64,000 nt of DNA from Verrucomicrobiota bacterium (GCA_021772675.1 JAJFLO010000068.1:5429-69428); one strand, 5' to 3'; positions 31,780-47,815 are shown, counted from the first letter of the stretch. Translations and numbers: made by a program. Notes: generated by a model not told the origin, from the sequence alone.

Positions 31780-32610
31780 ATGATGATAGACAGAATAGCA
31801 TTTCAAATTGGAAACATCACCATATACTGGTATGGGATATGTGTCGCTATATCAGTTCTCGTTGGTTTTTTTATAATCCAATACAGAGCGATAAAATTTA
31901 AGATCGATTCAGATCAAGTATCTGATTTATGTTTTTACGCAATTCTTGGGGGAATATTAGGTGCCCGGTTTTTATATGTTGTTTTAAATTTTCAGGACTA
32001 TTCGGATAATCTCATAGAGATAATCAGAATTGATCACGGAGGTCTGGTATTTTATGGCGGGTTTATCGGAGCCTGTGCTGCGGTCACGTGGTATATCAAA
32101 CGAAAAAAATTAGATTTTTGGACCATTGCCGATTTATTTGCTTTGGCACTGCCGCCCGGGCAAGCAATAGGTCGTATGGGATGCCTTATTAATGGGTGTT
32201 GCTTTGGCTCTTCCACAAAAAACTGGTTTTCAATAAAATACCCCAGCGATTCAATCATATTCTCTACCCAGGTTCACAAACACGAAATTTCACCTTATGC
32301 AACCGAATGTTTACCGGTTATTCCTACTCAAATCACCCAAAGTCTGATTAATATTCTGATTTGGTTTATCCTTATTTTTTCGGCAAAAAAACTGAAACAT
32401 AAAGGTCAATTATTTTCGCTGTACTTAATTTTGTACGCAATTGGACGCTTTACTAATGAATTTTATAGAGGCGATTATCTGACATACTATGCTGGAATGA
32501 CAATTTCCCAAATCGTATGTTTAGTTTTACTTCCCACAGGAATCTTTTTTTATATAAAAAACCGTGTACAAGGAGCCCCAAAAAATCAACGCACAGGACA
32601 AACCAGCTGA
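31780..32610 (+). CDS. lgt: Prolipoprotein diacylglyceryl transferase
   Basis: IYWYG, GARFLYV, GGLVFYGG, GQAIGRMGC..NGCCFG, RF..EFYRGD. Confidence 0.95.
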   Translation: MMIDRIAFQIGNITIYWYGICVAISVLVGFFIIQYRAIKFKIDSDQVSDLCFYAILGGILGARFLYVVLNFQDYSDNLIEIIRIDHGGLVFYGGFIGACAAVTWYIKRKKLDFWTIADLFALALPPGQAIGRMGCLINGCCFGSSTKNWFSIKYPSDSIIFSTQVHKHEISPYATECLPVIPTQITQSLINILIWFILIFSAKKLKHKGQLFSLYLILYAIGRFTNEFYRGDYLTYYAGMTISQIVCLVLLPTGIFFYIKNRVQGAPKNQRTGQTS

Positions 32611-33559
32611 ATTAATCACTCGTAGTGCTAGAATTAAGATTAATAAAGACGAGTCCGGAGTAAGATTGGACCAATTTTTGTCCAAAAAATTTTCTGCCTT
32701 TTCGAGAAGTGCGTTGCAGAAGATGATTGAAGACGGTTCTATTTTGCTTAACAAAAAAATGACGCAAAAAAAAACCAGACTTGTGTGTGGTGACGAAATT
32801 ACAATTGATTGGCCTGATGAAGAACCTGACTTACTGCCCAATGCAACGATTAAATTTGCGATCATATACGAAGATAATGATATACTTGTCATTGATAAAC
32901 CTGCGAATCTTGTTGTTCACCCTGGGGCAGGGACCGAAGATGGCACATTAGTTAATGCGCTTCTCCATCATGATTTTACATCATTTAATGCCATGCAAGG
33001 AAACGAATTGAGACCTGGTATCGTTCACCGCTTAGATAAAAACACAACCGGCGTCATGGTTGTTGCTAAGAATGAACTTGCAAAAACAAGATTAATCGAA
33101 GAATTTAAATTAGGGAACACAGCCAAAGAATACCTGGCGCTAGTTAACGGTATTTCCGACTATAACTCTGGCACGATAGAAACACTTATTGGTCGCAGCC
33201 CGAGAAACCGTAAAAAGATGGGGGTTGTCAATGAGAATGGTAAACAGGCAATTACATCCTATCAGGTTGTCGCTCAAAAAGATAAACATTCGCTTCTTAA
33301 AATAAAAATTAAGACCGGAAGAACCCATCAAATCCGAGTTCATCTGGCCCACATCAATTTACCTGTCGCCGGCGATACATTGTATAATAAAAAGAAAAAA
33401 AACGACATTTATTTCCCCAGGCAAATGCTGCATGCCTTAACGTTAAAATTCCATCATCCAACAAGCGGAGAATTGAAAACCTTCCATGCTGAACAACCAA
33501 ATGATATGATTGAGGCTGCACATGATATCGGATTAAACATTGGAAATTATGACAGTTGA
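32564..33559 (+). CDS. rluD: RluA/RluD family 23S rRNA pseudouridine synthase
   Basis: S4 domain RLDQFL, DKPANLVVHPG, GIVHRLDKNTTG, TGRTHQIRVH, RQMLHA; exact start uncertain. Confidence 0.9.
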   Translation: MYKEPQKINAQDKPAELITRSARIKINKDESGVRLDQFLSKKFSAFSRSALQKMIEDGSILLNKKMTQKKTRLVCGDEITIDWPDEEPDLLPNATIKFAIIYEDNDILVIDKPANLVVHPGAGTEDGTLVNALLHHDFTSFNAMQGNELRPGIVHRLDKNTTGVMVVAKNELAKTRLIEEFKLGNTAKEYLALVNGISDYNSGTIETLIGRSPRNRKKMGVVNENGKQAITSYQVVAQKDKHSLLKIKIKTGRTHQIRVHLAHINLPVAGDTLYNKKKKNDIYFPRQMLHALTLKFHHPTSGELKTFHAEQPNDMIEAAHDIGLNIGNYDS

Positions 33560-33687: not shown

Positions 33688-33857
33688 AGGAACTGGAAAT
33701 AAATACATCGTCGACAGAGCTCTCAGATTTGGTCGTAACCATTGAATAACTCCACGGCTGTAGCTTGCCTACTGCGAGGATGTTGCGATTGACTTGGGAT
33801 CAAATATGGAGTGAACCTGAGATGCCAATGTCGATGAGATATTTATTTCCAGTTCCT
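33688..33857. mobile_element. 170-bp MITE with 29-bp TIRs
   Basis: AGGAACTGGAAATAAATACATCGTCGACA / TGTCGATGAGATATTTATTTCCAGTTCCT. Confidence 0.8.
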
Positions 33858-33865
33858 CGTTGACG

Positions 33866-34297
33866 TCAAGACTTTTTCCGGGGTGCACAATAAATCTTTT
33901 TCTTTTGTTCTGGACTGGCGGCGGGTCTACCATACTTTCGTAACCCCTTATAATAAGTTTTAGCCATCCGTTTAGAAACCCCGTCAGCAATACATATATC
34001 CCTAAATTCTTCATCTGCTTCTTTTCTATAAGTTCTTGTGTCAAGCTCTTTGTTCCTCATTAGTTGATAAAGCGCATCATGAACCACGGAAGCACGCATA
34101 TTTTTCCTAGTATCTGGCACCGGGCCAGAAGGACCGTCCCATGCATATCCTTTTTTGATCGTCAATTTCCCTTTTTTGTCCAGTTTTATAAATTCTGTAT
34201 TGATCTTGCGTTCTTGTTTTATTCGTATGTCTACTTCATAGCTTTCTGATAATTGATATTTGTATCCCTTTCTATAATGAATAAACCCTTTAGCCAT
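33866..34297 (-). CDS. DUF1353-like protein
   Basis: GYAWDGPSGP, ASVVHDALYQL, RKEADEEF...C..DG motifs. Confidence 0.75.
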   Translation of the reverse strand: MAKGFIHYRKGYKYQLSESYEVDIRIKQERKINTEFIKLDKKGKLTIKKGYAWDGPSGPVPDTRKNMRASVVHDALYQLMRNKELDTRTYRKEADEEFRDICIADGVSKRMAKTYYKGLRKYGRPAASPEQKKKIYCAPRKKS

Positions 34298-34370
34298 TTT
34301 TCACTTCCTTTCAAGTAAACTTTCTTGATATATTTGGGTGTTGAAATATGATGCCCATATTATCGAACAA

Positions 34371-37300
34371 CTAATTCGTATACAACATCAATAATTGTTC
34401 AACAAATACAAGAGATCCGACCCCTCCGAATGGAAAAAGAAGAGCAACCACAACTGGGTTTTGGGTCATAGGCGCAAATGCACCTTTTTTAAGCGTTTTG
34501 ATATCATTTATGAAATAGTTTAATCGTTCAATTTCTTTATGATAGGCAGGCGAAGAATGGTCACATTCACCTACATCAGCATCCATAACAAAAAGAAGTT
34601 TGGCTTTCAGCCAATCAATTACATAACCACGTGCATTTAATGCACTACGTTGTAAATTGATAACACAAAATGCAGTCATAAGAAAAGCAGCACAAATTGT
34701 CACAATCAAAGAAATCGGCCAGTTCCAATTATCAAAATACGATATTCTAGAAATAATCGACAGAAATAAAATGAAAAATGGAAATAGGATTAGGCTACCA
34801 ACTAGCTCCGTTCTACTGGCAATTATCCGAATACTTAACCACGCATCAAGTGCATCAGGACTGTTAAATTTTCTTAAAGGATGAAAATGATTTATTTTCG
34901 GTGTTGGAATCAAATATTTAGTTCGCGTTTCTTCTGGCCATTTATACACCTGCCGGGTAAGTTCAGTAATAAACTTCCTACAATCCAGCGCAACGTTAAC
35001 AACAAAAAATATCAGTAGGACCATGCAAAAATGAAATGATAGGGTAATGATAAAATCAATGGTATCAGAATAACTTCCGCGAAAAGGAATCATTGGGGGA
35101 GTATACATTCGATCCAGTGGATTTATTATGACGACGTAAAAAATCGCGATAGTTAATAAAAGAGAAAAAATGCCTTTCAAGCTACATCCCTTCCGAGTGT
35201 ATTCATACCATAAAAGTCTTACGTGTGTGTCATTCTTTAAATTATTAATGCCCAACTTTTGACCAATCCAGTTTTTTATTAGCTTAATCTGAAAAAATCC
35301 AGCCAAATTATATATTAGAAACGAGAATGAAATTAATAAAGTCCACAGTCGGCTGTTTTTTTTCGTTTTCTTGTCCTTAACTATTTCTTTTATTTGTCGT
35401 TTAAAAACTTGATCAGTAAGGCTGAATTCACTTGTTAATTTCTTATTGGAAATTATGATTTTCAAAACTGAAAGAATAAAAAAATACAATGCAAAGAAAA
35501 TGCCAATTAGGCGAATAACTTCCGTGGGCCAAATACTAACGCCTTCAAAGAATAACCACGGCTCACCCTCTCCGTTCATATACGCTTGATTAACTATGGC
35601 AGGTAACCTTATAAAAACGGTCAAGCTTAGCATAAAGAGCATAAGAAACCAGATTGTAAAATTAGCTCTAGGCAAATTGTCCAGTTGATTTGCTTCCCTA
35701 ATTCCAAGAAACGTGGCAAGAACGAAAAGAAATAACAAGGTGAGGGAAGTAGGAGAATACCAAATCTTTCTTTGGAAAGTTTCCAACGAAAGTTCTCCAA
35801 TACCTTCTAGCTGATCTTTCCTTCTGGGATGAAGGGAATGACTTGAAGCGTCCCCAGGCGTCAGGTTAATGATGTCACGTTTTCCTATTTCAAAAATTCT
35901 GGGTTGATGCTTGTGAACCACTTTTTCCTTGATTTCGCCAAGGGCAACTAAAATTGCGGTAAAAATAGACGTTTGGTAACTATACCGAAATGGTGCGATA
36001 TCTTTTTGATACAGGTTATTTAGTTTAAGACCGTAACTTGAAGCGACAATCATATTTTGTGTAAAGCTAATTTCACTAGGATCTGCAAGGCGCGCATCGA
36101 TATCCGTTGTAAAAAAAAGAACATCCGGAAAATGTTCACGTAATGCACGAGAAATAAGTAATTTATCGTAGACATCAGATCCCAATATCCCTATAACCCT
36201 CACTTTACTATTCGATTCTTGCCTAATTCTATCGTTATGTTCCCTTATTTCGCTAACAATGCGCTGTAAGTAGTCAATCTGATGGCGACCAGCGGCATGA
36301 GTTTGCTTCTGCTGCTGGTTGATATCCCTGGGTTCGTTAGGATAATTTGATAGCTGTTCTTTCAATAAAATTTCACGTTTTTTTTCTGGAAGTTTTCCAT
36401 CCAAACCGCGCAAATAACTAAACGTTTTTACACGTTCGTCCGGGGAAATTTCATTGCGGGTAAGTAGTTCCCGAAACTCTTGGGATTCGAGATATGGATA
36501 TAAATTGAATTCTCTCCCATAAAATTGAATCGCTGATTTTTTATTCTCAAGCCCCTCATAATGTTCTGTGACTACCTTTTTAAAACTCAGTGGTAACAAA
36601 CGGCCATAAAACGTATCCCATTCGCTAACCAATACGATATGACCTAATTCATTCTTATACTTTAGGAATCCTCGCCTGGATAATTCTTCCGTTATAGTTT
36701 TTGAAAGTGCGGTGTCTGAATGAATCAAAAAATGAAACCGGATCTTAAATTCTGGCGGTATTGAATTTTGCCAACTGCTATCCCACCCATTTTCGGCGAT
36801 TTCCCCGTCATATTTAGGGTTGCTGCCTAATAACTTCCAATCAGCAGTCGCAAAGGGAGAATATATGTGAAGGGTGCTATTGTTATCGTTAGTATATTCA
36901 TTATATCTTTTTGATACACTTTTTTTTCTTTCATTTGCCTCGTCAACACACTTTTCCGCTTCTTTTAACTCGTCGTGAGAGTTCTCCACAATTTGTTTTT
37001 CATAATCTATTTTTCCCCTGATTTCTATTAACTTATTACACTGCTTCTTGACTTTCTCAAGGTCTCTGCTTAACTCTCTTTTTGCGCGTATATATATTCT
37101 TTCTATGTCATCTATCACTGCTTCTCTTGATTTTTGACCGCCTAAAATGAATTCCAGATCTTTTAATGCCAGTTCTCCCAATTCTCCATTTGGTGTAACT
37201 GTTGCCTTTAATTCGAGGTATTTTTCCATATAGTCAAGAATCAATCCATGTTTATCGGAAAATTCATTGACAAAAAGGCTATCCAGAAAGATGATATCAT

Positions 37301-38489
37301 CATTATTTTTTGCCAGTTCTTCTTTGTAGTAGCTGCATTCTACTTCAACTTCTCCATTTTTCCGCTTTGCAGCAGCATTTACTTTAGTTAATGCCATGTA
37401 AGATTTTATCCGATTTGACTCACTGTCTTCATGATAACAAATCTTATCTAATTTCTTGAATATTTCTATTTCCTTTTCTTTCAGGTCATCTGCCATCTCA
37501 AGACTGAAATCCAGCGAATATCTAATAGCCTTGGCAAACCATTCAACTCTTGATTTTATTTCTTTTACCCCTTCAAATAAATTAGCTCGCGCATTTTCTA
37601 AATCATTACCAATTGATTCTAGTCCCACCAGACGCTCGGAAGTCTTTTTCCTCTCTTCTTCATACCTGATATTTGCTACTTGTAATCTGTCTTTCAGTAT
37701 ATTGAACTTTGATAATGCCTCGTCATAGGAAATTTTCGCCATTTTGGAACCGTTGTCATATTCCTCTAAAAGATCAACTGCTGCATTCCGCTGCTCTACG
37801 ACTTCTAGGACTTCTTTTGCCATTTGGGAGAATGAAGTAGATTCTGGAGGGCCAATGATTTTAATGTCGATATCAGGCCTATTATCTAAATCCTTACGGA
37901 TAGAGTTATTGAATTTTCGAAGTTTAATTAGTGATTTCTCGTTAAACAGATCAGCTGGTGGCCAGACAACCAAAATTGACTCAGGTTTCTGTATGCTATT
38001 TCCACCCCCCGTAGAATTGCTCTTTTTATTCACTGACGAAATATCGAGTTTAAACCATTCGAATGGAATTCTGCGGCCATTTCCGTAACAAAAATAGCTA
38101 AGGTGGCTAGCGTTATCTGGTCGATATCCAGTGGCATTTAACGCTGAAAGCACCGCATAACGTCTTCGTATCCGGCGCTCTACATCCTCCGAATATGGGA
38201 GGTTATTGATTAATACTGAAAAAACTAAAACAGAACCGGATCGTTCCCGCCATAGGTCGAGATTTTCATCCTCCAAAGTATCAAAATCAATAATAGCTTG
38301 GTACGGATCCTGCCAAAGTCTGGTAGGTACTTTTTTTTCTTCTTTACCACCATATTCTGTTTTATCGGCCACCGCAGGTCTTCGTGACGTCAATGGAGTA
38401 TGCAGAAGAGCACCTCCAATTACGGCAGCAATTAATAAAACAAGAGTAGGTGCTGGTGAAGAAGAATTGGAGGATTGAATGCCCAACAT
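34371..38489 (-). CDS. Large uncharacterised multipass membrane protein with extracytoplasmic domain and coiled-coil insert
   Basis: N-terminal TM/signal, soluble alpha/beta region, about 9 C-terminal TM helices. Confidence 0.8.
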   Translation of the reverse strand: MLGIQSSNSSSPAPTLVLLIAAVIGGALLHTPLTSRRPAVADKTEYGGKEEKKVPTRLWQDPYQAIIDFDTLEDENLDLWRERSGSVLVFSVLINNLPYSEDVERRIRRRYAVLSALNATGYRPDNASHLSYFCYGNGRRIPFEWFKLDISSVNKKSNSTGGGNSIQKPESILVVWPPADLFNEKSLIKLRKFNNSIRKDLDNRPDIDIKIIGPPESTSFSQMAKEVLEVVEQRNAAVDLLEEYDNGSKMAKISYDEALSKFNILKDRLQVANIRYEEERKKTSERLVGLESIGNDLENARANLFEGVKEIKSRVEWFAKAIRYSLDFSLEMADDLKEKEIEIFKKLDKICYHEDSESNRIKSYMALTKVNAAAKRKNGEVEVECSYYKEELAKNNDDIIFLDSLFVNEFSDKHGLILDYMEKYLELKATVTPNGELGELALKDLEFILGGQKSREAVIDDIERIYIRAKRELSRDLEKVKKQCNKLIEIRGKIDYEKQIVENSHDELKEAEKCVDEANERKKSVSKRYNEYTNDNNSTLHIYSPFATADWKLLGSNPKYDGEIAENGWDSSWQNSIPPEFKIRFHFLIHSDTALSKTITEELSRRGFLKYKNELGHIVLVSEWDTFYGRLLPLSFKKVVTEHYEGLENKKSAIQFYGREFNLYPYLESQEFRELLTRNEISPDERVKTFSYLRGLDGKLPEKKREILLKEQLSNYPNEPRDINQQQKQTHAAGRHQIDYLQRIVSEIREHNDRIRQESNSKVRVIGILGSDVYDKLLISRALREHFPDVLFFTTDIDARLADPSEISFTQNMIVASSYGLKLNNLYQKDIAPFRYSYQTSIFTAILVALGEIKEKVVHKHQPRIFEIGKRDIINLTPGDASSHSLHPRRKDQLEGIGELSLETFQRKIWYSPTSLTLLFLFVLATFLGIREANQLDNLPRANFTIWFLMLFMLSLTVFIRLPAIVNQAYMNGEGEPWLFFEGVSIWPTEVIRLIGIFFALYFFILSVLKIIISNKKLTSEFSLTDQVFKRQIKEIVKDKKTKKNSRLWTLLISFSFLIYNLAGFFQIKLIKNWIGQKLGINNLKNDTHVRLLWYEYTRKGCSLKGIFSLLLTIAIFYVVIINPLDRMYTPPMIPFRGSYSDTIDFIITLSFHFCMVLLIFFVVNVALDCRKFITELTRQVYKWPEETRTKYLIPTPKINHFHPLRKFNSPDALDAWLSIRIIASRTELVGSLILFPFFILFLSIISRISYFDNWNWPISLIVTICAAFLMTAFCVINLQRSALNARGYVIDWLKAKLLFVMDADVGECDHSSPAYHKEIERLNYFINDIKTLKKGAFAPMTQNPVVVALLFPFGGVGSLVFVEQLLMLYTN

Positions 38490-38541
38490 AACGTTATAAT
38501 GATACGAATGTAAAAATCATTAAGGAGGATAATGGAATTCT

Positions 38542-41500
38542 TTAATTACCGTTGGCATCGCCAAGGAACATGACAGCAGTCTCATAATCTTGAACCGCAT
38601 CGTTTCGATTATTCATGACAGCCTCAATCATCTCATGAACAATTGTAGACACAAAACGATTTGCCACTTTTTCGCCATTTACTGCAGAGTCATAAGTAGT
38701 TCGTTTCTCTTTCAGTTCTTTTTCCGCTGCTGCTTTCTCATTTTTCTTATCCACTAGCATTTCTTCAGCAGTTTCCAGTTTTTTCTTTGCCTGCTGTTCT
38801 TCTTCGTGCGCCATTTTTAAAATATCTTGAACAGTATCAACAGACTGCTCGGTAACCGGGAGGGGTTCTTTGGCTTTCGCTAAATTATTTTGGGCAGTTG
38901 TATAATTTTCTTTCTCTTTCTCAACTTTTTTTTCAGCTGCCGTCAATTCTCCCTTTATTTTCTTAAGTTTATCATCAGCAGTTTTAAGATTTTGTTTGTC
39001 TGCTTTTGTCAGATACAAGTCTCTAATTCCCTGAATAAGCTGATTGTGAAAGCGTCGGCTACCGTGAAGAACACCAATAATCAATTCACCAGTAGTATGA
39101 TAATCCAGTTTTTTGTTCCGTTCGATCTCCTTCAAATTCATTTCTAATAATTCTATTGGTTCCTTTAAATAAAGCTTTGTAGCATCATCTCGTTTTATTT
39201 TCAACTCATTTATTTTTTGTTTTAAGAACTCATTTGTCATCCACGCATCTTCAAGTCGTTTTGGTAGCGATTCACCTAATAGTTCAACAACCAATTTCCC
39301 ATCTTTAGCGGTTTGTGTATTATATGCGATTTCATATTTTAGTAGAAGAGATTCAAGTTGTCCTTTTGAGGACTGACCATTATCCGATTCGCCATTGGCA
39401 CCTTCTTTCTGAGCCTCCAATATCCGGCGATTCAGATTTATTCCCATTTTTCCACTTAATCCCAACAGAGCAAGATTTTTCGCTGATTCGATAATCGGTT
39501 TCGGATCGGCGCTGTACGATTTTACATACCAGTTACCAATATCATCTTTAGCAACGACATAATTGGTTTTGCCGCCACCGGCAACGCGCACTCGATTCAC
39601 GTTCTGCCAAAACTGTTTATCGATGTCCGTATTAATGAGGTTACTGGTATTTTTATTCGGATTTAACAGTCCATGCCACCGTGCAGCAAAAGGTAGACTC
39701 CTCGCTCCCTGTTGACCGAGCATATTGTCCCAGGACAAGTTTGGATCGGATTGCAATGACGTCGAGGGATAACTGGTTCTTAAATATGACGAGGCTGGAC
39801 GTATATGAACCATATTCGCTCGATGTGCATAAGCCGCGTTGAGTGCAGCCGCTATATGCTTAGCACGTCCTTCCTTTGCTCCACTTTCCCGAACTGCCTG
39901 GACATGCTCATAGCGAAGAGCAGCAATCAAGGCATCCGTGACATCTTTCGCATTATGGTCATCCTCTTTTAATCCGAAATTAGCCAGATCAATCGGATCA
40001 GTAGGGGCTTCGCGACCTTCTAAAGAAATGGCAGCATCACCATAGATTTTTATTGTTTTGTCGGCAGATTCCATTTCTGCTTTTGTTTTTGATTTTTCCG
40101 CTTCCGCTTTCGATTTTTCTGTGGCATCATTATTTCGAATCGCAACTACCAATCTTGCCTCTGCCTTAATTTTTTCACTTTCCGCTTCACTTTTCTCACG
40201 TTCTGCTTTTGTTTTGCGCTCATTGATCAGTCTGCGAATCCGTGAATATACATCGCTGGGTATACCACCGGCATCCGTGGTATCGATCTCCTCCAATAAA
40301 TCATATTGTATATTCTGAACTGCTTTTACTGCATTCACTTTTTTCGCTTTTTCCCCAATAGACGTATTTAATTTTTCTTGTGCATTTTTTAAATTTGCAT
40401 CAGCTATTGATTTCTCAGATTTCTTTACCTCCAATGTTTCTAACGCCCGGCCCAAATCCGTCTTTTCTTCAATCAAATTATCAGCAAGTGGTTTGATTTT
40501 ATTTTCAACTTTGCCAAAACTTCGTTGCAATCGTTTAATAATGCTGTCAATCGCCGTGTCAGAATCCATTTTTATATTATCATTTAACGATTTAGTTATT
40601 ACCATTAAGTTTAAATAATCGATGGCATCCGGAATATTTTCCAGATCAGGTAATCCACTTGAGTTTAATCGAGGTTCCAGTAAATCCTTCATTTTTCCAG
40701 CGATTTTACGTTCAGTATAGGTTATTATTTCCGTTTGTGCGTCTTCATCGTCGCTGTTGTTAACCAATGCTGCGTCATCTTCTCGGATTCGTTTTTTTAA
40801 CTCATGCACGATTTCTTCAATGAAATACGACTTAGCATTAATAATAATTTTGTGTTTTGACTTTAACCCTTTTAACTGTTTTTCTAAGTCGTCAACTTCT
40901 GCTTTGGCTTTTATCACGTTTTTCTCAGCGTCAACTTTGGCTTTCTGTGCAACCGCCTTTGCCTCTTCCATTTTTTTCTTATCTACAGTCAATTTTTCCG
41001 CTTTTTCATTCGCATCAGTCACATCTTGTTCTAACGACTTAATAAGATTGTCAAGAGTAATTTTGGGATCAATTTTTAGCGATCGCTTCAACGCTTCTAA
41101 TTCCGTCGCATAGTGATCCTTGAGCTGTTTTTTGTATCCTTTGACAGTTATTAATTCGTTTGCCTGTGTCAAAATAGAATTGCCAACAGCTTGGAGTACT
41201 CGAATATACGAATCTTCATTACCAGGTGGAGTTGACTTACCGAATAATAAACTAAGACTGGAATCCAAAGTTTTACCTACGATTCCGCGAGCACTTAAAT
41301 TCATCACATCGCAGACTGCTCCATTCTCATTGGTGCCTTTTTCATTGGTGCCTTTTTCATTGCCCAACAGTCCGCGGCGAGTTATATCTACTGTATTGTC
41401 CAATAGTCCTTTTTCTTCCAGAGGCGAAATAAGCGTCGTATAATTGGCAATTGGCAGAAGCTTTGATGCAAACCGAATTAATGCATTGATTAATTGCTCT

Positions 41501-43266
41501 TGTTTAATATGAATGGAATCTCTATTCTGATAGGAACTATTTAGATAGCTTTCAATTAGTGTTTCCAGACCTAGATCAAGCCGTCCCCTTTCCAATCCAT
41601 GTTTGAAACCAGACAAGGTATTGCTAGCTTGGCTTACGACTTTAGCTGCATCAAATTCTGCACTAGGTCCTACTGAAATACCAAATGCTCGTTTAATTGC
41701 TGAAGTAAAACTTTGACCGAGACCGGCATTCTGAATTATATTAGCATTATTTAAAAGGTGGTTAGATTTAAAAAACGAATGGGCGGATTGAAGAGCAATG
41801 GCCGTCTCATATGGACGTTGAATAATTTCATGGATCACCGCATCTCTATATACATTAAATATAGGACTATCCGTATCCCATTTTCCACTGGCATCTCTAA
41901 TCGGTTTGGTTTGAACAATAAAAAATCCATCTATTGGAATACTTTTCTGTAAATTTCTACTTAAATTCACTAATTCCTTAGGAACATTTCGGCTATGTGT
42001 TTCAGCAACGGATAACACTGTAGCTAGATCGCGGAGATTAATTATTTCTACAACAAATTCTGCGGGATGTTGAAACACACGCTTCATTACCTCTGAGTTT
42101 GCCTTTTCTCTGTAGTTGAGGCCAGTTTTTTCGATGCCAACTAACGTTGCCTCCAACAAATTTTCGATGGATTGGCGACTTTTCATGAATGAAAAGGCAA
42201 TCTCGATGACCCGTTGTTCAAAATGTTTCCTTTCTTTTTGAATATTTGAATTTTTTTTACAATTGAAGAGATATTTCGTATGATTCTCGACAATGGAAGA
42301 ATCAGTCAATGCCTTGAAAAAAGCATTCGCACTTCTGTCTATTTGATTGTCATTGAATGTGCCAAATACATTTTGGGGGGCGAGAATATTGTCTTTATTT
42401 AGATATATCATTTCTTGAGCTTCAATAATCTTTGAATCATAACGAAAACCATCTCTATTGGTGAAAAAATTGCGATAACCAATAAACAACTGTGCTTTAA
42501 CTATCTGTTGAATTAATTGGTCGATCTCTATCTGAGCGTTGTTTCCTTCAGATTCTTTTTCCATTGCATTGCCATGTTTTTCTTTCCCTTTTCCAATCCC
42601 TTCGACTTCTAACTTTTTAGCCTCTAGCATTAGAGATTTGGCGGCCTTAGATAAATTGTTTCTATAATGTTTCTTTATTTTTAATTCTTGCTTCCAAAGC
42701 TTAATATTTTCCTCAACTGGTTCATTGATAAAATAATCACTACACATACTATTTTTAAATGAATTAAATTCTCGCTCTCCTTCTTCTGATGATGGTTCTC
42801 CAAAGATTCGCCATTCTTGTCTAAAATTGTACAATGCTTGACGACCATCATCAATAACTTGTGTCAATCGGGTGGATTTGTCCTCATAAAGATATAAAAC
42901 CGAATTCATTCTATTTGCATTTTCATCATAAAAATAACTTTGCCCATCAATGGTAGGTATATGGCGAGCTTTATATCGATCTCTATCTTTCTTAATGTCT
43001 ACAAATGGAACCATGGAACCGCTATTTTTTAACTCTTTTCTTTTTTCAATTTCTAATTCATCACGGACTTGAATTAGCAATGGTTTCGCCCCAATAGCCA
43101 TAACCGCCATTTGTTCAATCTGTACGTCTTCATGATTTGCCAAACTTCCTTTATAAACATCGACATCAACGGTTAATACAGCACATCCTACCCCCATAAG
43201 ACATGATCCTGTTATCGTAATGATGCTTAGTCTTTTTATGATATTTTTTCCTAAAAAATTAGTCAT
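38542..43266 (-). CDS. Giant coiled-coil putative lipoprotein (~1574 aa)
   Basis: RBS GGAGG before Met 43266; signal peptide ending GVGC (lipobox-like); several K/E/A-rich coiled-coil tracts. Confidence 0.8.
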   Translation of the reverse strand: MTNFLGKNIIKRLSIITITGSCLMGVGCAVLTVDVDVYKGSLANHEDVQIEQMAVMAIGAKPLLIQVRDELEIEKRKELKNSGSMVPFVDIKKDRDRYKARHIPTIDGQSYFYDENANRMNSVLYLYEDKSTRLTQVIDDGRQALYNFRQEWRIFGEPSSEEGEREFNSFKNSMCSDYFINEPVEENIKLWKQELKIKKHYRNNLSKAAKSLMLEAKKLEVEGIGKGKEKHGNAMEKESEGNNAQIEIDQLIQQIVKAQLFIGYRNFFTNRDGFRYDSKIIEAQEMIYLNKDNILAPQNVFGTFNDNQIDRSANAFFKALTDSSIVENHTKYLFNCKKNSNIQKERKHFEQRVIEIAFSFMKSRQSIENLLEATLVGIEKTGLNYREKANSEVMKRVFQHPAEFVVEIINLRDLATVLSVAETHSRNVPKELVNLSRNLQKSIPIDGFFIVQTKPIRDASGKWDTDSPIFNVYRDAVIHEIIQRPYETAIALQSAHSFFKSNHLLNNANIIQNAGLGQSFTSAIKRAFGISVGPSAEFDAAKVVSQASNTLSGFKHGLERGRLDLGLETLIESYLNSSYQNRDSIHIKQEQLINALIRFASKLLPIANYTTLISPLEEKGLLDNTVDITRRGLLGNEKGTNEKGTNENGAVCDVMNLSARGIVGKTLDSSLSLLFGKSTPPGNEDSYIRVLQAVGNSILTQANELITVKGYKKQLKDHYATELEALKRSLKIDPKITLDNLIKSLEQDVTDANEKAEKLTVDKKKMEEAKAVAQKAKVDAEKNVIKAKAEVDDLEKQLKGLKSKHKIIINAKSYFIEEIVHELKKRIREDDAALVNNSDDEDAQTEIITYTERKIAGKMKDLLEPRLNSSGLPDLENIPDAIDYLNLMVITKSLNDNIKMDSDTAIDSIIKRLQRSFGKVENKIKPLADNLIEEKTDLGRALETLEVKKSEKSIADANLKNAQEKLNTSIGEKAKKVNAVKAVQNIQYDLLEEIDTTDAGGIPSDVYSRIRRLINERKTKAEREKSEAESEKIKAEARLVVAIRNNDATEKSKAEAEKSKTKAEMESADKTIKIYGDAAISLEGREAPTDPIDLANFGLKEDDHNAKDVTDALIAALRYEHVQAVRESGAKEGRAKHIAAALNAAYAHRANMVHIRPASSYLRTSYPSTSLQSDPNLSWDNMLGQQGARSLPFAARWHGLLNPNKNTSNLINTDIDKQFWQNVNRVRVAGGGKTNYVVAKDDIGNWYVKSYSADPKPIIESAKNLALLGLSGKMGINLNRRILEAQKEGANGESDNGQSSKGQLESLLLKYEIAYNTQTAKDGKLVVELLGESLPKRLEDAWMTNEFLKQKINELKIKRDDATKLYLKEPIELLEMNLKEIERNKKLDYHTTGELIIGVLHGSRRFHNQLIQGIRDLYLTKADKQNLKTADDKLKKIKGELTAAEKKVEKEKENYTTAQNNLAKAKEPLPVTEQSVDTVQDILKMAHEEEQQAKKKLETAEEMLVDKKNEKAAAEKELKEKRTTYDSAVNGEKVANRFVSTIVHEMIEAVMNNRNDAVQDYETAVMFLGDANGN

Positions 43267-43978
43267 TGTCCACCTCCCGGGAATTTGGAATATCAGCTTG
43301 TACATCTTTAGCAAACTCATTAAGCCGCTTTCGTTCATTCGTAATGTTCGATAATGCCTTAAATAACAGTGTATTGAGTCTGGAACTATTTTGTTCGCTT
43401 ATGGCTTTAGAAATAGTTCCAATCGACGTATCGATTGCATTAAAAAAGTCTTCGGGACTTGATCCCATTAATATTACCAATCGATGATCCTTTGGTGCTT
43501 CCCGGAAGCCCTCTGGACCGAAAATCATGAGCCGACGTCCAGTAGGAATCGCGCCGGCCACCTCACCTTCGGCCCTTGTTATCGACACGTTACCTGAACC
43601 GTCCTTAAATCCAACTTGTGAACCAAGTGTATCGATCAAATCCGCACGTACCCACCCCGAGGCAAACTTTTTGAAACTCAGGAAACTGGCCTGTCCCCGA
43701 ACCCGAACCCGATAAATCGTATCCGGTATTTGTTCCTGAGGATCGAATACGCCAAGATAGTAAACCTGCTCAATTTCATTATTTGGTGAGTAGGATCCGT
43801 AGACCGTCGCTGCGGCAATCCCAAGAGCTAAATTTTGTTCAGGTGTGGAACACCCTATCAGGAATAAGATATTCAGCAGTGCGGCAGTATAGATAATCGT
43901 TTTTGTTAATGTAAATTCTCGAATTCGTTCAACGAATCTGTCAGGATTGAAAGGAATATTAATATTTTTTACAATCAT
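43259..43978 (-). CDS. Putative lipoprotein (~239 aa)
   Basis: RBS GGAG before Met 43978; hydrophobic stretch ending LIGC; stop overlaps next start. Confidence 0.75.
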   Translation of the reverse strand: MIVKNINIPFNPDRFVERIREFTLTKTIIYTAALLNILFLIGCSTPEQNLALGIAAATVYGSYSPNNEIEQVYYLGVFDPQEQIPDTIYRVRVRGQASFLSFKKFASGWVRADLIDTLGSQVGFKDGSGNVSITRAEGEVAGAIPTGRRLMIFGPEGFREAPKDHRLVILMGSSPEDFFNAIDTSIGTISKAISEQNSSRLNTLLFKALSNITNERKRLNEFAKDVQADIPNSREVDND

Positions 43979-44270
43979 TTTAACAATCTCCGCTAGGTGT
44001 TCAGTTTTTTTGTAAATGAGTATATCCAGACATGAAAGAAGGCATCGGAGGCGCCCCACGCTTATGCGTCTAATTACTATCCCACAATTAGTCACTGAGG
44101 CAATTTTACCGCATTGAGACATGGTGTCAAGGAAATAAAAAAATAAAATGAATTTTATTCAGAGAAAATTAATCTTTTTTACTTTAGTGACAAAAAAATG
44201 GAGCGCTAACGTTAATTCGCATTGCTCATAACGACGTTGATGCGAAAAGCGGGTTAAGACTTGCCGAAGG

Positions 44271-44439
44271 CTTTAGAGTGCATGCGGCCTGACGCCGCTT
44301 TGGATTCCCCCGGAGTGGAGGAGGGCCCGGACTACAGTTGTTCCTTTACTTGACCATGCGGAGTTTTGCTTGAAAATACCCTCCCCCATTTTCGCTCCGC
44401 GAAGTTTCAAAGCGGCGTCAGGCCGCACGCACTCCAAAG
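44271..44439. repeat. REP doublet, TTTGGAGTGC class
   Basis: CTTTAGAGTGCATGCGGCCTGACGCCGCTTTG / CAAAGCGGCGTCAGGCCGCACGCACTCCAAAG. Confidence 0.85.
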
Positions 44440-44624: not shown

Positions 44625-45533
44625 TTATAGATTTGCTATCGTTAGCATACCATTTTTTTCTTTCGCAAACAGCCTGGCAGCCGCTCCAATTGGCAGCACA
44701 ACCCGATTGGTATCGTGTCCATACTCCAATCCAGATAAAACTGGACCATTTACATATTCAGCGACTTCTCGATATAAAGGTTCCAAATCGCCATGACTTT
44801 TACTTTCCGGAGTACAGTTATTGAAGTGACCAAAAACCAAACCTCTAATCTTGTCAAAGATCCCGGAAAGCCGCATTTGTGTTAGCATCCGATCAATTCT
44901 ATATGGCTCTTCATTGACATCTTCAATCACAAGGATTGCCTGATCAAGTATTGGCATGTATTCGGTACCAATCAAAGAAGTAATTATAGATAGGCAGCCT
45001 GCAATTAAAGTGCCATTTGCAACACCTGGTTTTATGATATTGAGATTCTCTACCTGATTAAAATTCCCATGGCAGCACAGATCCCAAAAGTAGTTATGAG
45101 TCAGTTCACTGAATCCATCCTGAGTGCAATCCGCACAAAGTGTTATACCTGAAAATGTAACCAAATTTATTTTAGAGTATATTGCTAATTGCAATGCTGT
45201 GGTATCACTAAATCCGGAGAATATTTTTGGATTATTCTTTAAGAGTTGGTAGTCTACGTTTTTGAGTAGTCGTGTTGATCCATACCCTCCTCGTGCAACA
45301 AATATGGCCGATATTTCCGGATCAGAAAACATGGTATGCAAGTCGTTTAGACGATCGCTGTCGTGACCAGCAAGGTATCTGTTTTTTTTATAGACAGACT
45401 CCCCGAGTTTTACCCGATAACCAAGCTTCTTTAGATAGTCAATTGCAGGCTGCAGCCGGTCCGAACTCACAACTCCCGAAGGTGCGATGATTCCGATTCC
45501 ATCTCCCGATTTCAATAATGCAGGACGTAGCAT
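44625..45533 (-). CDS. LD-carboxypeptidase (peptidase S66)
   Basis: IGIIAPS, ARGGYG, GFSDTTAL (Ser), IEDVNE (Glu), YGH (His). Confidence 0.92.
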   Translation of the reverse strand: MLRPALLKSGDGIGIIAPSGVVSSDRLQPAIDYLKKLGYRVKLGESVYKKNRYLAGHDSDRLNDLHTMFSDPEISAIFVARGGYGSTRLLKNVDYQLLKNNPKIFSGFSDTTALQLAIYSKINLVTFSGITLCADCTQDGFSELTHNYFWDLCCHGNFNQVENLNIIKPGVANGTLIAGCLSIITSLIGTEYMPILDQAILVIEDVNEEPYRIDRMLTQMRLSGIFDKIRGLVFGHFNNCTPESKSHGDLEPLYREVAEYVNGPVLSGLEYGHDTNRVVLPIGAAARLFAKEKNGMLTIANL

Positions 45534-46678: not shown

Positions 46679-47815
46679 TTATTTAGAAGACATAATATTA
46701 AATACCAACAATCGATTCGATTCGGGAACAATCAAGAGTAGATATGTCTGATCATCACATACGATAACACCGAAGCTATTACCGAATGCTGGGGCTTGGA
46801 CCGAAATCTTGAAATCTAAAATTTCCTGAGCCCCTGAATGCCGGTTGAATACCTTAATCGATTGATAATCGTTTCCAAGAGTAATTATTTTATCGTGATA
46901 GGCGATGAGTGGTCCGCCTCCAGCACCAACCCAAATGGTTTTTCCATCTGAATCAAGGGCCTGAATTGTATCATTCTCGACAGCATAGAAATTCCCGTCT
47001 TCGTCAACGGCAAAATAGTTGATTCCCTTGCTAAATTTAGGGCTTATTTTTGCTGACTTGGTAAATTTTCCAATTTCCGGATCATAAACTTTTAAATGCC
47101 CATTATTCCCCATAAAAATGGTTTCTCTTTTTAAGGGTAAGTCAGTGCTTAAGATAGAATGACCAAATGAGAGTAGGTTTACATGATGATCAGAACCCCA
47201 TTCAATCTTATTTTTAAAAGGCAACTGTAGCAAAAAGGGTATATAAATATTGTGGTCAATATTTGAATTATTAATCCTGGGATTTTTTTGCTCCCAGACA
47301 AAGGTATAAGCATTCTCCATTGAATAATCATTATAGCTATTGGTATCAATTACTATGGGAAGAAACTTATTATCATTGTCTAAAAAACCCCATCCGATTT
47401 CCTGTAAATAGAAAAGTGAATCTGAATTACCGGAATAGAAAAAATCCAGGCTTTGGCAGTTGTTACATATTTCCTCTGAAAGATTTAATCGCCACCGTTC
47501 TGACGCACCCGTAAAATCAATCGCGTTGGGCAAAATGTTTAATAGTTTAAAACGTTTTGGGATTCTCTTTTTATGGGGTCTAATTTTTGAGGGAAAACTG
47601 AACCAATCGTCGTTTTTATTGGCATTCCTAACAGTATCGATTTTTTTTGCAAGTGGATTTAGCAGTAGTGGATCACCTAAGCGTTGCTGATGAACAAGTG
47701 CTAATGAAATATCATCTCCCTGAACTGACATATTTACCATCAGCAATAAAAACATAACATTAGGTTGAAACAAATTCACAGGTATTAAATTTCGTAATTG
47801 GAAATAATTTTGCAT
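46679..47815 (-). CDS. Hypothetical exported protein, C-terminal beta-propeller-like repeats
   Basis: 378 aa; FAVDEDGNFY, ALDSDGKTIW blade-like segments. Confidence 0.6.
   Translation of the reverse strand: MQNYFQLRNLIPVNLFQPNVMFLLLMVNMSVQGDDISLALVHQQRLGDPLLLNPLAKKIDTVRNANKNDDWFSFPSKIRPHKKRIPKRFKLLNILPNAIDFTGASERWRLNLSEEICNNCQSLDFFYSGNSDSLFYLQEIGWGFLDNDNKFLPIVIDTNSYNDYSMENAYTFVWEQKNPRINNSNIDHNIYIPFLLQLPFKNKIEWGSDHHVNLLSFGHSILSTDLPLKRETIFMGNNGHLKVYDPEIGKFTKSAKISPKFSKGINYFAVDEDGNFYAVENDTIQALDSDGKTIWVGAGGGPLIAYHDKIITLGNDYQSIKVFNRHSGAQEILDFKISVQAPAFGNSFGVIVCDDQTYLLLIVPESNRLLVFNIMSSK

Follow-up and report, generated by a model that had tools for sequence, protein, structure and literature searches.

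A cluster of four genes on the minus strand of a 64,000-nucleotide (nt) stretch of DNA from a Verrucomicrobiota bacterium (GCA_021772675.1 JAJFLO010000068.1:5429-69428; hereafter the window, with positions counted from its first letter) is, in the reading we favor, made up of three uncharacterized envelope modules, evolutionarily independent of one another and brought side by side in this lineage; a membrane sensor acting with a lipid hydrolase would be the most likely mechanism. We put the probability of this reading at roughly 0.4. The genes, for which we use the working names lipoA, ccB, memC, and DUF1353 protein, encode a 239-amino-acid (aa) predicted lipoprotein, the first of a conserved pair (lipoA, 43259-43978); a 1574-aa predicted lipoprotein, mostly helical with coiled-coil stretches (ccB, 38542-43266); a 1372-aa inner-membrane protein with an N-terminal transmembrane (TM) helix, a predicted Venus-flytrap domain, and eight further TM helices (memC, 34371-38489); and a 143-aa protein of Pfam family PF07087 (DUF1353 protein, 33866-34297). 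A first-pass annotation of this DNA had described four co-directional genes at these coordinates, and the list of open reading frames (ORFs), complemented for lipoA and ccB by alignment, agrees with it. The reading frames of lipoA and ccB share 8 nt, 52 nt separate ccB from memC, and 73 nt separate memC from the DUF1353 gene. We call the host an uncultured Lentisphaeria bacterium: its GatA is nearest to those of Lentisphaeria and Victivallales metagenome-assembled genomes (MAGs), with ~60% identity to named ones, and its assembly spans 7.3 Mb in 605 contigs and is 86% complete. The stretch occurs in sequencing runs of one biofilm study, all of them DNA runs.

The four genes are not conserved as a cluster. 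Relatives of memC occupy at least 540 stretches of one-genome-per-species contigs (540/600 pattern matches were confirmed), and we examined the best 80 of these loci (77 had a usable gene call) along with flanks of up to 10 kb, as well as the best 80 of at least 191 metagenome-contig stretches encoding a ccB relative. Searches with tblastn and family hidden Markov models recovered no ccB, lipoA, or DUF1353 relative in the 80 memC loci, and no memC relative was present in the 80 ccB loci. The first-pass annotation had proposed a multicomponent cluster and had itself named a lack of co-occurrence among homologs as an observation that would tell against it; at 0/80 and 0/80, the proposal does not hold. 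Apart from synteny within Nitrospira, the memC neighborhoods are heterogeneous. Four Nitrospirota genomes carry both ccB and memC, on different contigs or 0.45-2.2 Mb apart; Nitrospira sp. UBC2 has lipoA-ccB at ~583 kb and two memC copies at ~129 kb and 2.82 Mb. Across 201 Nitrospirota genomes, memC is present in 23 and ccB in 5 (4 full-length, 1 fragmentary), all five of which also have memC (Fisher p ~1e-5), never in the same contig region, and this co-occurrence is not telling because it is confounded by shared ancestry within Nitrospira. Four of the five memC-bearing genomes tested lack ccB. Both families are sporadic around the host itself, with no ccB found in 300 other genomes of the window's class and no memC in 40 relatives of the host.

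The earlier annotator recognized no characterized pathway for the three large proteins, lipoA, ccB, and memC, and our searches agree, having returned no meaningful match in Pfam, NCBIfam, PADLOC, or PHROGs. Among the PADLOC 2.0 defense models, three of the four window proteins match no family, and lipoA gives a single chance-level match (LeoB, E 0.011). Profile searches of PDB sequences with memC, ccB, and lipoA yielded nothing significant. No description of these families was found in the literature, supplements and subscription journals excepted.

The only conserved unit among the four genes is lipoA-ccB, a translationally coupled pair. Both genes were called in 58 of the best 80 ccB loci; ccB stands alone in 18, mostly cut off by a contig end, lipoA alone in 3, and neither was called in 1. 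Where at least 900 nt precede ccB, as in 58 loci, the gene immediately upstream on the same strand is lipoA in 52, and these 52 pairs overlap by 4 nt in 29 cases and by 1 nt in 5; the number of independent cases is smaller, because several contigs are near-duplicates from related samples. Nitrospira sp. UBC2 has the same layout. Both products are predicted to be genuine lipoproteins: the lipobox-like ends noted in the first-pass annotation, LIGC in lipoA (Cys43) and GVGC in ccB (Cys28), follow hydrophobic segments, and their Cys is conserved across relatives, at 90% or more in the lipoA alignment and in 22/22 ccB relatives; the Gly at -3 of ccB is unusual. Relatives of lipoA form 249 clusters at 50% identity (E<=1e-3), the best of them 50-57% identical to the window protein, and are lipoproteins of ~210-230 aa with the conserved motifs EIEQ.YYLGVFDP, YRVRV.GQAS, FASGWVPA, FGPEGFREAP, and HRLVIVMG. 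lipoA itself has no match in Pfam, NCBIfam, or PDB sequences; its top ESM Atlas score, 0.80, is to clusters named only 'lipoprotein'. Complex prediction with lipoA 44-239 and ccB 27-135 and 1095-1300 scored 0.01 against a mark of 0.32, the fold of the partner being itself uncertain, and so speaks neither for nor against a complex.

In UBC2 (L084:7484-17654; G041:C1 ~582-593 kb), the genes downstream of lipoA-ccB on the same strand encode, in order, a DUF900 alpha/beta hydrolase (349 aa), a predicted lipoprotein of 329 aa, a protein of 138 aa, and one of 739 aa that has an HGIGE-type motif and no Pfam match. A trio of 339-, 321-, and 716-aa proteins recurs in loci L108-L110 and L113. The Nitrospira pair and the genes downstream of it may form a larger lineage-specific operon.

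ccB, with 147 relatives, has conserved blocks and a variable middle. Its most conserved N-terminal block (CAVLTVDVDVYKG...AKPLL; residues 28-130, 42877-43185) starts from the lipidated Cys and consists of invariant or nearly invariant columns. In the relatives, too, the near-invariant CAVLTVDVDVYKGPLAN block begins directly after the lipobox Cys, an arrangement unusual for a lipoprotein tether. A coiled-coil-like middle, delimited by a composition scan and by alignment gaps (residues ~711-1070, 40057-41136), is missing from short forms of ~1040 aa (P0122, P0127, P0140, P0145, and P0149). Beyond it lies a conserved globular block with invariant columns (residues 1095-1300, 39367-39984) that contains IRPA..YLR.S and DKQFWQN.NRVRV.G.G.TNY..KDD.GNWYVK. 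The alternation of globular blocks and coiled coils that had been reported from the sequence is borne out, with coiled-coil-like stretches at ~711-864, 927-1070, and 1332-1530.

An AlphaFold model of the short homolog P0149, from a 53-row alignment, is nearly all helix, with a mean predicted local distance difference test (pLDDT) of 76 and a predicted template modeling score (pTM) of 0.51. Residues 21-36, which match the N-terminal block of ccB, have pLDDT <50, and the second conserved block shows small beta strands at low confidence. The two most conserved blocks of this homolog (21-36 and 774-853) are thus its least confidently modeled, and less conserved helical bundles score >90; the equivalents in the window protein fall within ~28-45 and 1210-1300. 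As a conjecture from the model, such low confidence would fit blocks that fold upon binding a partner. Foldseek returned no match to the P0149 model at E<=1e-3 (best E>=0.046), VIA gave generic helical bundles only (Z<=10.6), mainly over residues 119-609 and 862-1026, and ESM Atlas had no usable match for ccB.

memC belongs to a family with 221 relatives in the protein collection at E<=1e-3, nearly all 1000-1150 aa long and all named 'hypothetical'. A large extracytoplasmic domain and about nine TM helices had been predicted for it, and we likewise find one N-terminal helix (residues 15-33) and eight or nine C-terminal hydrophobic segments around an 878-residue loop. Eight of these lie at 912-930, 948-966, 995-1013, 1104-1122, 1146-1164, 1233-1251, 1259-1277, and 1345-1363, and a ninth, 1048-1066, falls in a variable region. 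Given the Lys- and Arg-rich loops at 1014-1103, 1165-1221, and 1278-1344, a topology with the N terminus inside and the domain outside fits only if 1048-1066 does not span the membrane. The polytopic membrane domain (residues 912-1363, 34401-35756) carries conserved motifs of its own, GEP..F..G.S.WPTE, P.RG, YFDNW, and GAF.P. No cytoplasmic output domain could be recognized in memC, and the window protein has no Pfam match at 0.01.

The extracytoplasmic domain (residues 34-911, 35757-38390) is predicted, through a modeled homolog, to adopt the type-I periplasmic-binding-protein, or Venus-flytrap, fold. The model of this homolog, P0028, was built from an 87-row alignment and reached a pLDDT of 83 and a pTM of 0.85. 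Its best VIA match is LivK (3td9; Z 21.0, root-mean-square deviation 3.8 A, 305/350 residues aligned), and the 25 rows that follow it are type-I binding proteins as well, among them Leu/Ile/Val-, urea-, amide-, and aromatic-acid-binding proteins; glutamate-receptor-like, taste-receptor, natriuretic-peptide-receptor, and metabotropic glutamate receptor (mGluR) ectodomains follow at Z 14-16. Foldseek places mGluR ectodomains and LivJ at the top (E ~1e-6). Inside the flytrap domain, the window protein has a coiled-coil-like insertion of ~300 aa (residues ~232-540, 36870-37796; composition scan and alignment), which is a gap in 18/19 aligned homologs; among those 19 only P0020 is comparable, and P0100, P0006, and P0009 also carry an insertion.

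The last gene encodes, by sequence, a member of the TtaP-type phospholipase A2 (PLA2) family, with predicted activity. It scores 30.6 bits against Pfam PF07087 (gathering cut-off 22.5), matches the phage family phrog_1158 (2e-29), is basic, has no signal peptide, and is the sole DUF1353 gene in the 7.3-Mb assembly. A 2024 paper describes TtaP of Salmonella Typhi as a single-domain DUF1353 protein with measured PLA2 activity that is lost in a D85A variant; H70 and D85 are its catalytic residues, D71 assists, and the protein is distantly related to the group XIV secreted PLA2s (PMC11525133). In the window protein, H73, D74, and D95 (codons within 34013-34081, minus strand) are the putative catalytic His/Asp residues, assigned from a phmmer alignment to the phospholipase A2 7ygk_A, the only match among PDB sequences, which pairs HD with HD and keaDeeF with kriDdnF. 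The suggestion in the first-pass annotation that this protein is an enzymatic partner gains support from the family assignment, the retained residues, the single copy, and the lipases found beside memC relatives elsewhere.

Lipid hydrolases recur next to relatives of both memC and ccB. Of 72 same-strand genes adjacent to memC we scanned 58, having dropped very short ones and a few duplicates, and 6/58 encode lipid hydrolases from three unrelated families: a patatin upstream (L041 and L077), an Abhydrolase_2 'phospholipase/carboxylesterase' downstream (L037, L052, and L061), and a Lipase_3 protein downstream (L054). A second scan, covering 88 representatives of the remaining memC neighbors within two genes, added alpha/beta hydrolases in two positions, L052 (+2) and L070 (+1), along with a YdbH-like protein of phospholipid transport (L046). 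Among same-strand neighbors of ccB, 4/49 are lipid hydrolases, namely a DUF900 alpha/beta hydrolase (L099 and L084, the latter being UBC2) and a patatin (L105 and L123); BLAST clustering shows the DUF900 gene beside ccB in 7 loci. As a control we scanned 100 of 150 genes drawn at random from the same loci, more than 4 kb from the anchors, and found one lipid hydrolase (Abhydrolase_3). Adjacent genes thus encode lipid hydrolases in 10/107 cases and distant ones in 1/100 (Fisher p = 0.01), a p value that overstates the case because few independent lineages contribute: the Nitrospira loci share synteny with one another, and L041 may be related to L077. From this recurrence we propose a link between sensor and phospholipase. 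In the Thiobacillaceae MAG locus L077:2352-13189, genes for a 1819-aa extracellular contractile injection system (eCIS)-core protein, a 550-aa patatin-like phospholipase, and the memC relative stand in a row on one strand.

The cluster lies where the first-pass annotation had placed it, between rluD (32564-33559, plus strand), which flanks the DUF1353 gene, and ldcA, the LD-carboxypeptidase gene (44625-45533, minus strand), which flanks lipoA, beside two kinds of repeat. The first, just downstream of the DUF1353 gene, resembles a miniature inverted-repeat transposable element (MITE; 170 bp, 33688-33857, no strand) with 29-nt terminal inverted repeats; it has 30 matches in the assembly, ~20 near full length, on ~20 other contigs, with copies 69-87% identical. 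The second, upstream of the cluster, is an inverted pair of two 45-nt units resembling repetitive extragenic palindromic (REP) elements (44271-44439, no strand), whose arms recur at ~20 places in the assembly; elsewhere, too, the unit often occurs as inverted pairs, several of them on contig C115. Both repeats are scattered genome-wide and so give no sign of the cluster being mobile. Its G+C content, 0.33-0.43, is like that of the flanks, and rluD and ldcA are non-adjacent in the four closest genomes, which therefore offer no empty junction for comparison. The earlier description of the cluster as mobile is not upheld.

Alternative starts exist for both lipoprotein genes. From the first ATG, ccB would span 38542-43338 (1598 aa) and lipoA 43259-44122 (287 aa), and the public protein collection lists lipoA in its 287-aa version, begun at the upstream ATG (P0241; 43979-44122 is the added segment). 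The shorter starts of the first-pass annotation, at 43978 for lipoA and 43266 for ccB, appear the better choice, because homologs begin ~20-30 residues ahead of the lipobox. The 239-aa form of lipoA is also favored because the best promoter-like site falls inside the longer ORF. This candidate promoter, the best sigma-70-like match on the minus strand (TTGACA-16-TAAAAT, 44103-44130), is assigned by an 11/12 consensus match only and lies ~120 nt upstream of the lipoA start. Terminator-like sites were looked for in the 52-nt and 73-nt gaps and none was found. Beyond rluD on the same flank is lgt (31780-32610), whose ORF shares 47 nt with the longest, GTG-initiated rluD ORF; alignments of the RluD family begin at about residue 25, which probably places the real start of rluD further downstream. 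The rluD match in a genome of the same genus (G001:C1:1422674-1423621) contains one in-frame TAA. Downstream of the LD-carboxypeptidase region, a 378-aa ORF (46679-47815, minus strand) has no Pfam match at E<=0.01.

Under the reading we favor, lipoA and ccB would very probably form one periplasmic, membrane-anchored complex in which ccB is a long helical or coiled-coil rod. The flytrap domain of memC would most likely bind a small ligand in the periplasm, and its eight-helix domain would most likely pass a signal, or a substrate, across the membrane. The DUF1353 protein would be a cytoplasmic PLA2-like enzyme. With memC as the sensor, a neighboring lipid hydrolase, here the DUF1353 enzyme, would act on membrane phospholipid in response, in the service of lipid remodeling or of a conflict response; lipoA-ccB would be a separate periplasmic scaffold, which likewise often has lipases for neighbors. 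The lipase neighbors and the lone DUF1353 gene 73 nt after memC are suggestive, and they are the only functional lead in the data. Several points weigh against this interpretation. The flytrap fold is predicted for P0028, which is ~30% identical to the window memC, and no Pfam binding-protein family, such as Peripla_BP_6 or ANF_receptor, was detected in any of 20 memC members at E<=0.05. The alignment of the DUF1353 protein to the PLA2 structure is weak (E 0.33). The lipase neighbors reduce to some four or five independent events for memC and three for ccB, no lipase lies within two genes of memC in ~70 of the 77 loci that have a gene call, and the gene calls themselves are crude, being longest ORFs chosen greedily.

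A bolder version would make memC a widespread bacterial class of receptor, built like class C receptors with a flytrap fused to a polytopic membrane domain, that reads a periplasmic ligand and directly controls cytoplasmic phospholipases of interchangeable families. The lipoA-ccB rod, anchored in the outer membrane, would be the second arm of this lipid-directed surveillance of the envelope; in the present genome the two arms would have been joined, memC having gained its coiled-coil arm to dock on ccB. We regard this as improbable. Only slightly more credit goes to the architecture of the first-pass annotation, in which one trans-envelope complex, perhaps for secretion, cell contact, or phage sensing, would combine lipoproteins on the outer side, a coiled coil that spans the periplasm, a receptor or channel in the inner membrane, and an enzyme as partner. 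The shared strand, the overlap, and gaps free of terminator-like sites are what such a complex would lead one to expect; the memC insertion that 18/19 relatives lack could reach a coiled-coil partner, and memC is present in 5/5 ccB-bearing Nitrospirota genomes versus 23/201 overall. That last association can, however, be explained by shared Nitrospira ancestry, and the Nitrospirota that have both genes keep them far apart or on different contigs. Set beside the absence of adjacency from every memC and ccB locus examined and the lack of ccB in four of five memC-bearing genomes, these points make a single four-part complex quite unlikely.

A conflict system, anti-phage or inter-bacterial, would account for other aspects of the data. 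Here memC, lipoA-ccB, or both would sense an insult to the envelope and release a membrane-destroying phospholipase, the lipase effectors being interchangeable, as effectors are in other defense systems. The distribution is sporadic, with ccB in 0 of 300 class genomes and ~5/201 Nitrospirota and memC in 0 of 40 relatives; unrelated lipase families are swapped at the same position; the DUF1353 protein has its match to a phage family; and some neighbors are of types common in conflict loci: proteins of the CHAT-TPR (L010) and cyclase-STAND (L007) kinds, a methylase of Eco57I type (L013), a NERD nuclease (L025), and the eCIS-core gene by the patatin (L077). PADLOC, however, offers nothing beyond the one chance-level match, the window cluster is flanked by housekeeping genes and resembles its surroundings in G+C, and memC in Nitrospira sits in a stable housekeeping context (dnaE, accA, selO) that suggests vertical inheritance. 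We consider a conflict system unlikely on balance, and hold the same view of the simplest explanation, that memC, the DUF1353 gene, and the two lipoprotein genes have come together by chance, without functional relation. Each unit does occur without the others in all other loci examined, and the surroundings of memC relatives are otherwise heterogeneous; but chance sits poorly with the position of the assembly's only DUF1353 gene, with the excess of other lipases beside memC and ccB relatives over the control, and with the tight spacing on one strand. The recurrent lipases suggest to us a link between memC and phospholipases, and we retain the juxtaposition of independent modules, with memC as a putative sensor, as our preferred account.

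The kinds of component found here are already known, namely lipoproteins, the flytrap fold, and a DUF1353 phospholipase. The homolog of memC shares its predicted two-lobed flytrap fold with type-I binding proteins such as LivJ/LivK and AmiC (VIA Z 18.4 to AmiC 1pea). Unlike LivJ/LivK, memC is anchored by its own N-terminal helix, has no ATP-binding cassette (ABC)-transporter partner genes, and lacks a Pfam binding-protein match, and the window protein differs from flytrap proteins in its coiled-coil insertion. Fusion of a flytrap to a polytopic membrane domain recalls the G-protein-coupled receptors (GPCRs) of class C, a likeness of architecture only. We considered memC as a class C GPCR and rejected the assignment: eight helices rather than seven follow the flytrap, the motifs are its own, there is no cysteine-rich linker, and 7tm_3 gives no Pfam match. 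A memC profile run against the PDB matched GPCR fusion proteins at chance level (E 0.009-0.9). Among defense modules, CBASS (cyclic oligonucleotide-based anti-phage signaling system) with CapV pairs a sensor with a patatin; a putative sensor with interchangeable phospholipase effectors would be the shared theme, but the present cluster differs in having no cyclase or nucleotide-signaling gene and no PADLOC match, and the putative sensor faces the periplasm.

TtaP, the founding DUF1353 PLA2 (125 aa), and the window protein (143 aa) are alike in being single-domain and in lacking a signal peptide, and the His-Asp pair and downstream Asp that the window protein appears to share with TtaP and the group XIV PLA2s are matched through 7ygk_A; the window gene differs in lying outside any toxin islet and in adjoining a membrane protein with a predicted flytrap (PMC11525133). 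Envelope lipoproteins with coiled coils, Lpp (Braun's lipoprotein) among them, are reported to set periplasmic spacing, and ccB is likewise a predicted lipoprotein with long helical or coiled-coil stretches in the periplasm (PMC8824477). ccB is 20-30x longer than Lpp, however, and has conserved globular blocks, an obligatory small lipoprotein partner, and no relation to Lpp in sequence or fold. By this analogy, a role for ccB in periplasmic spacing would be speculation.

These results describe three families that have no curated family, no solved sequence relative, and no paper that we could find, and that nevertheless occur in hundreds of environmental bacteria. Among the best 80 loci of each search, the hosts include nitrifiers, anammox bacteria, methanotrophs, and Planctomycetes; a connection to intracytoplasmic membranes or a wide periplasm is left as speculation because the taxa come from those best 80 loci only. 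The combination of flytrap and eight-helix domains, the giant lipoprotein pair, and the apparent lipase link are, as far as we have seen, undescribed in the literature searched. The unit of study is corrected, with lipoA-ccB and memC (plus lipase) as separate modules, and for structural studies the lipoprotein pair is a clean target of two genes. The lipase neighbors supply a concrete, testable hypothesis of what memC does and of what cellular DUF1353 phospholipases do. memC appears to combine an eight-helix membrane domain with the best-known ligand-binding fold in bacterial transport and in the neurotransmitter receptors of animals; should it be a receptor, it would represent a bacterial signaling architecture that, as far as our limited literature search shows, has not yet been described.

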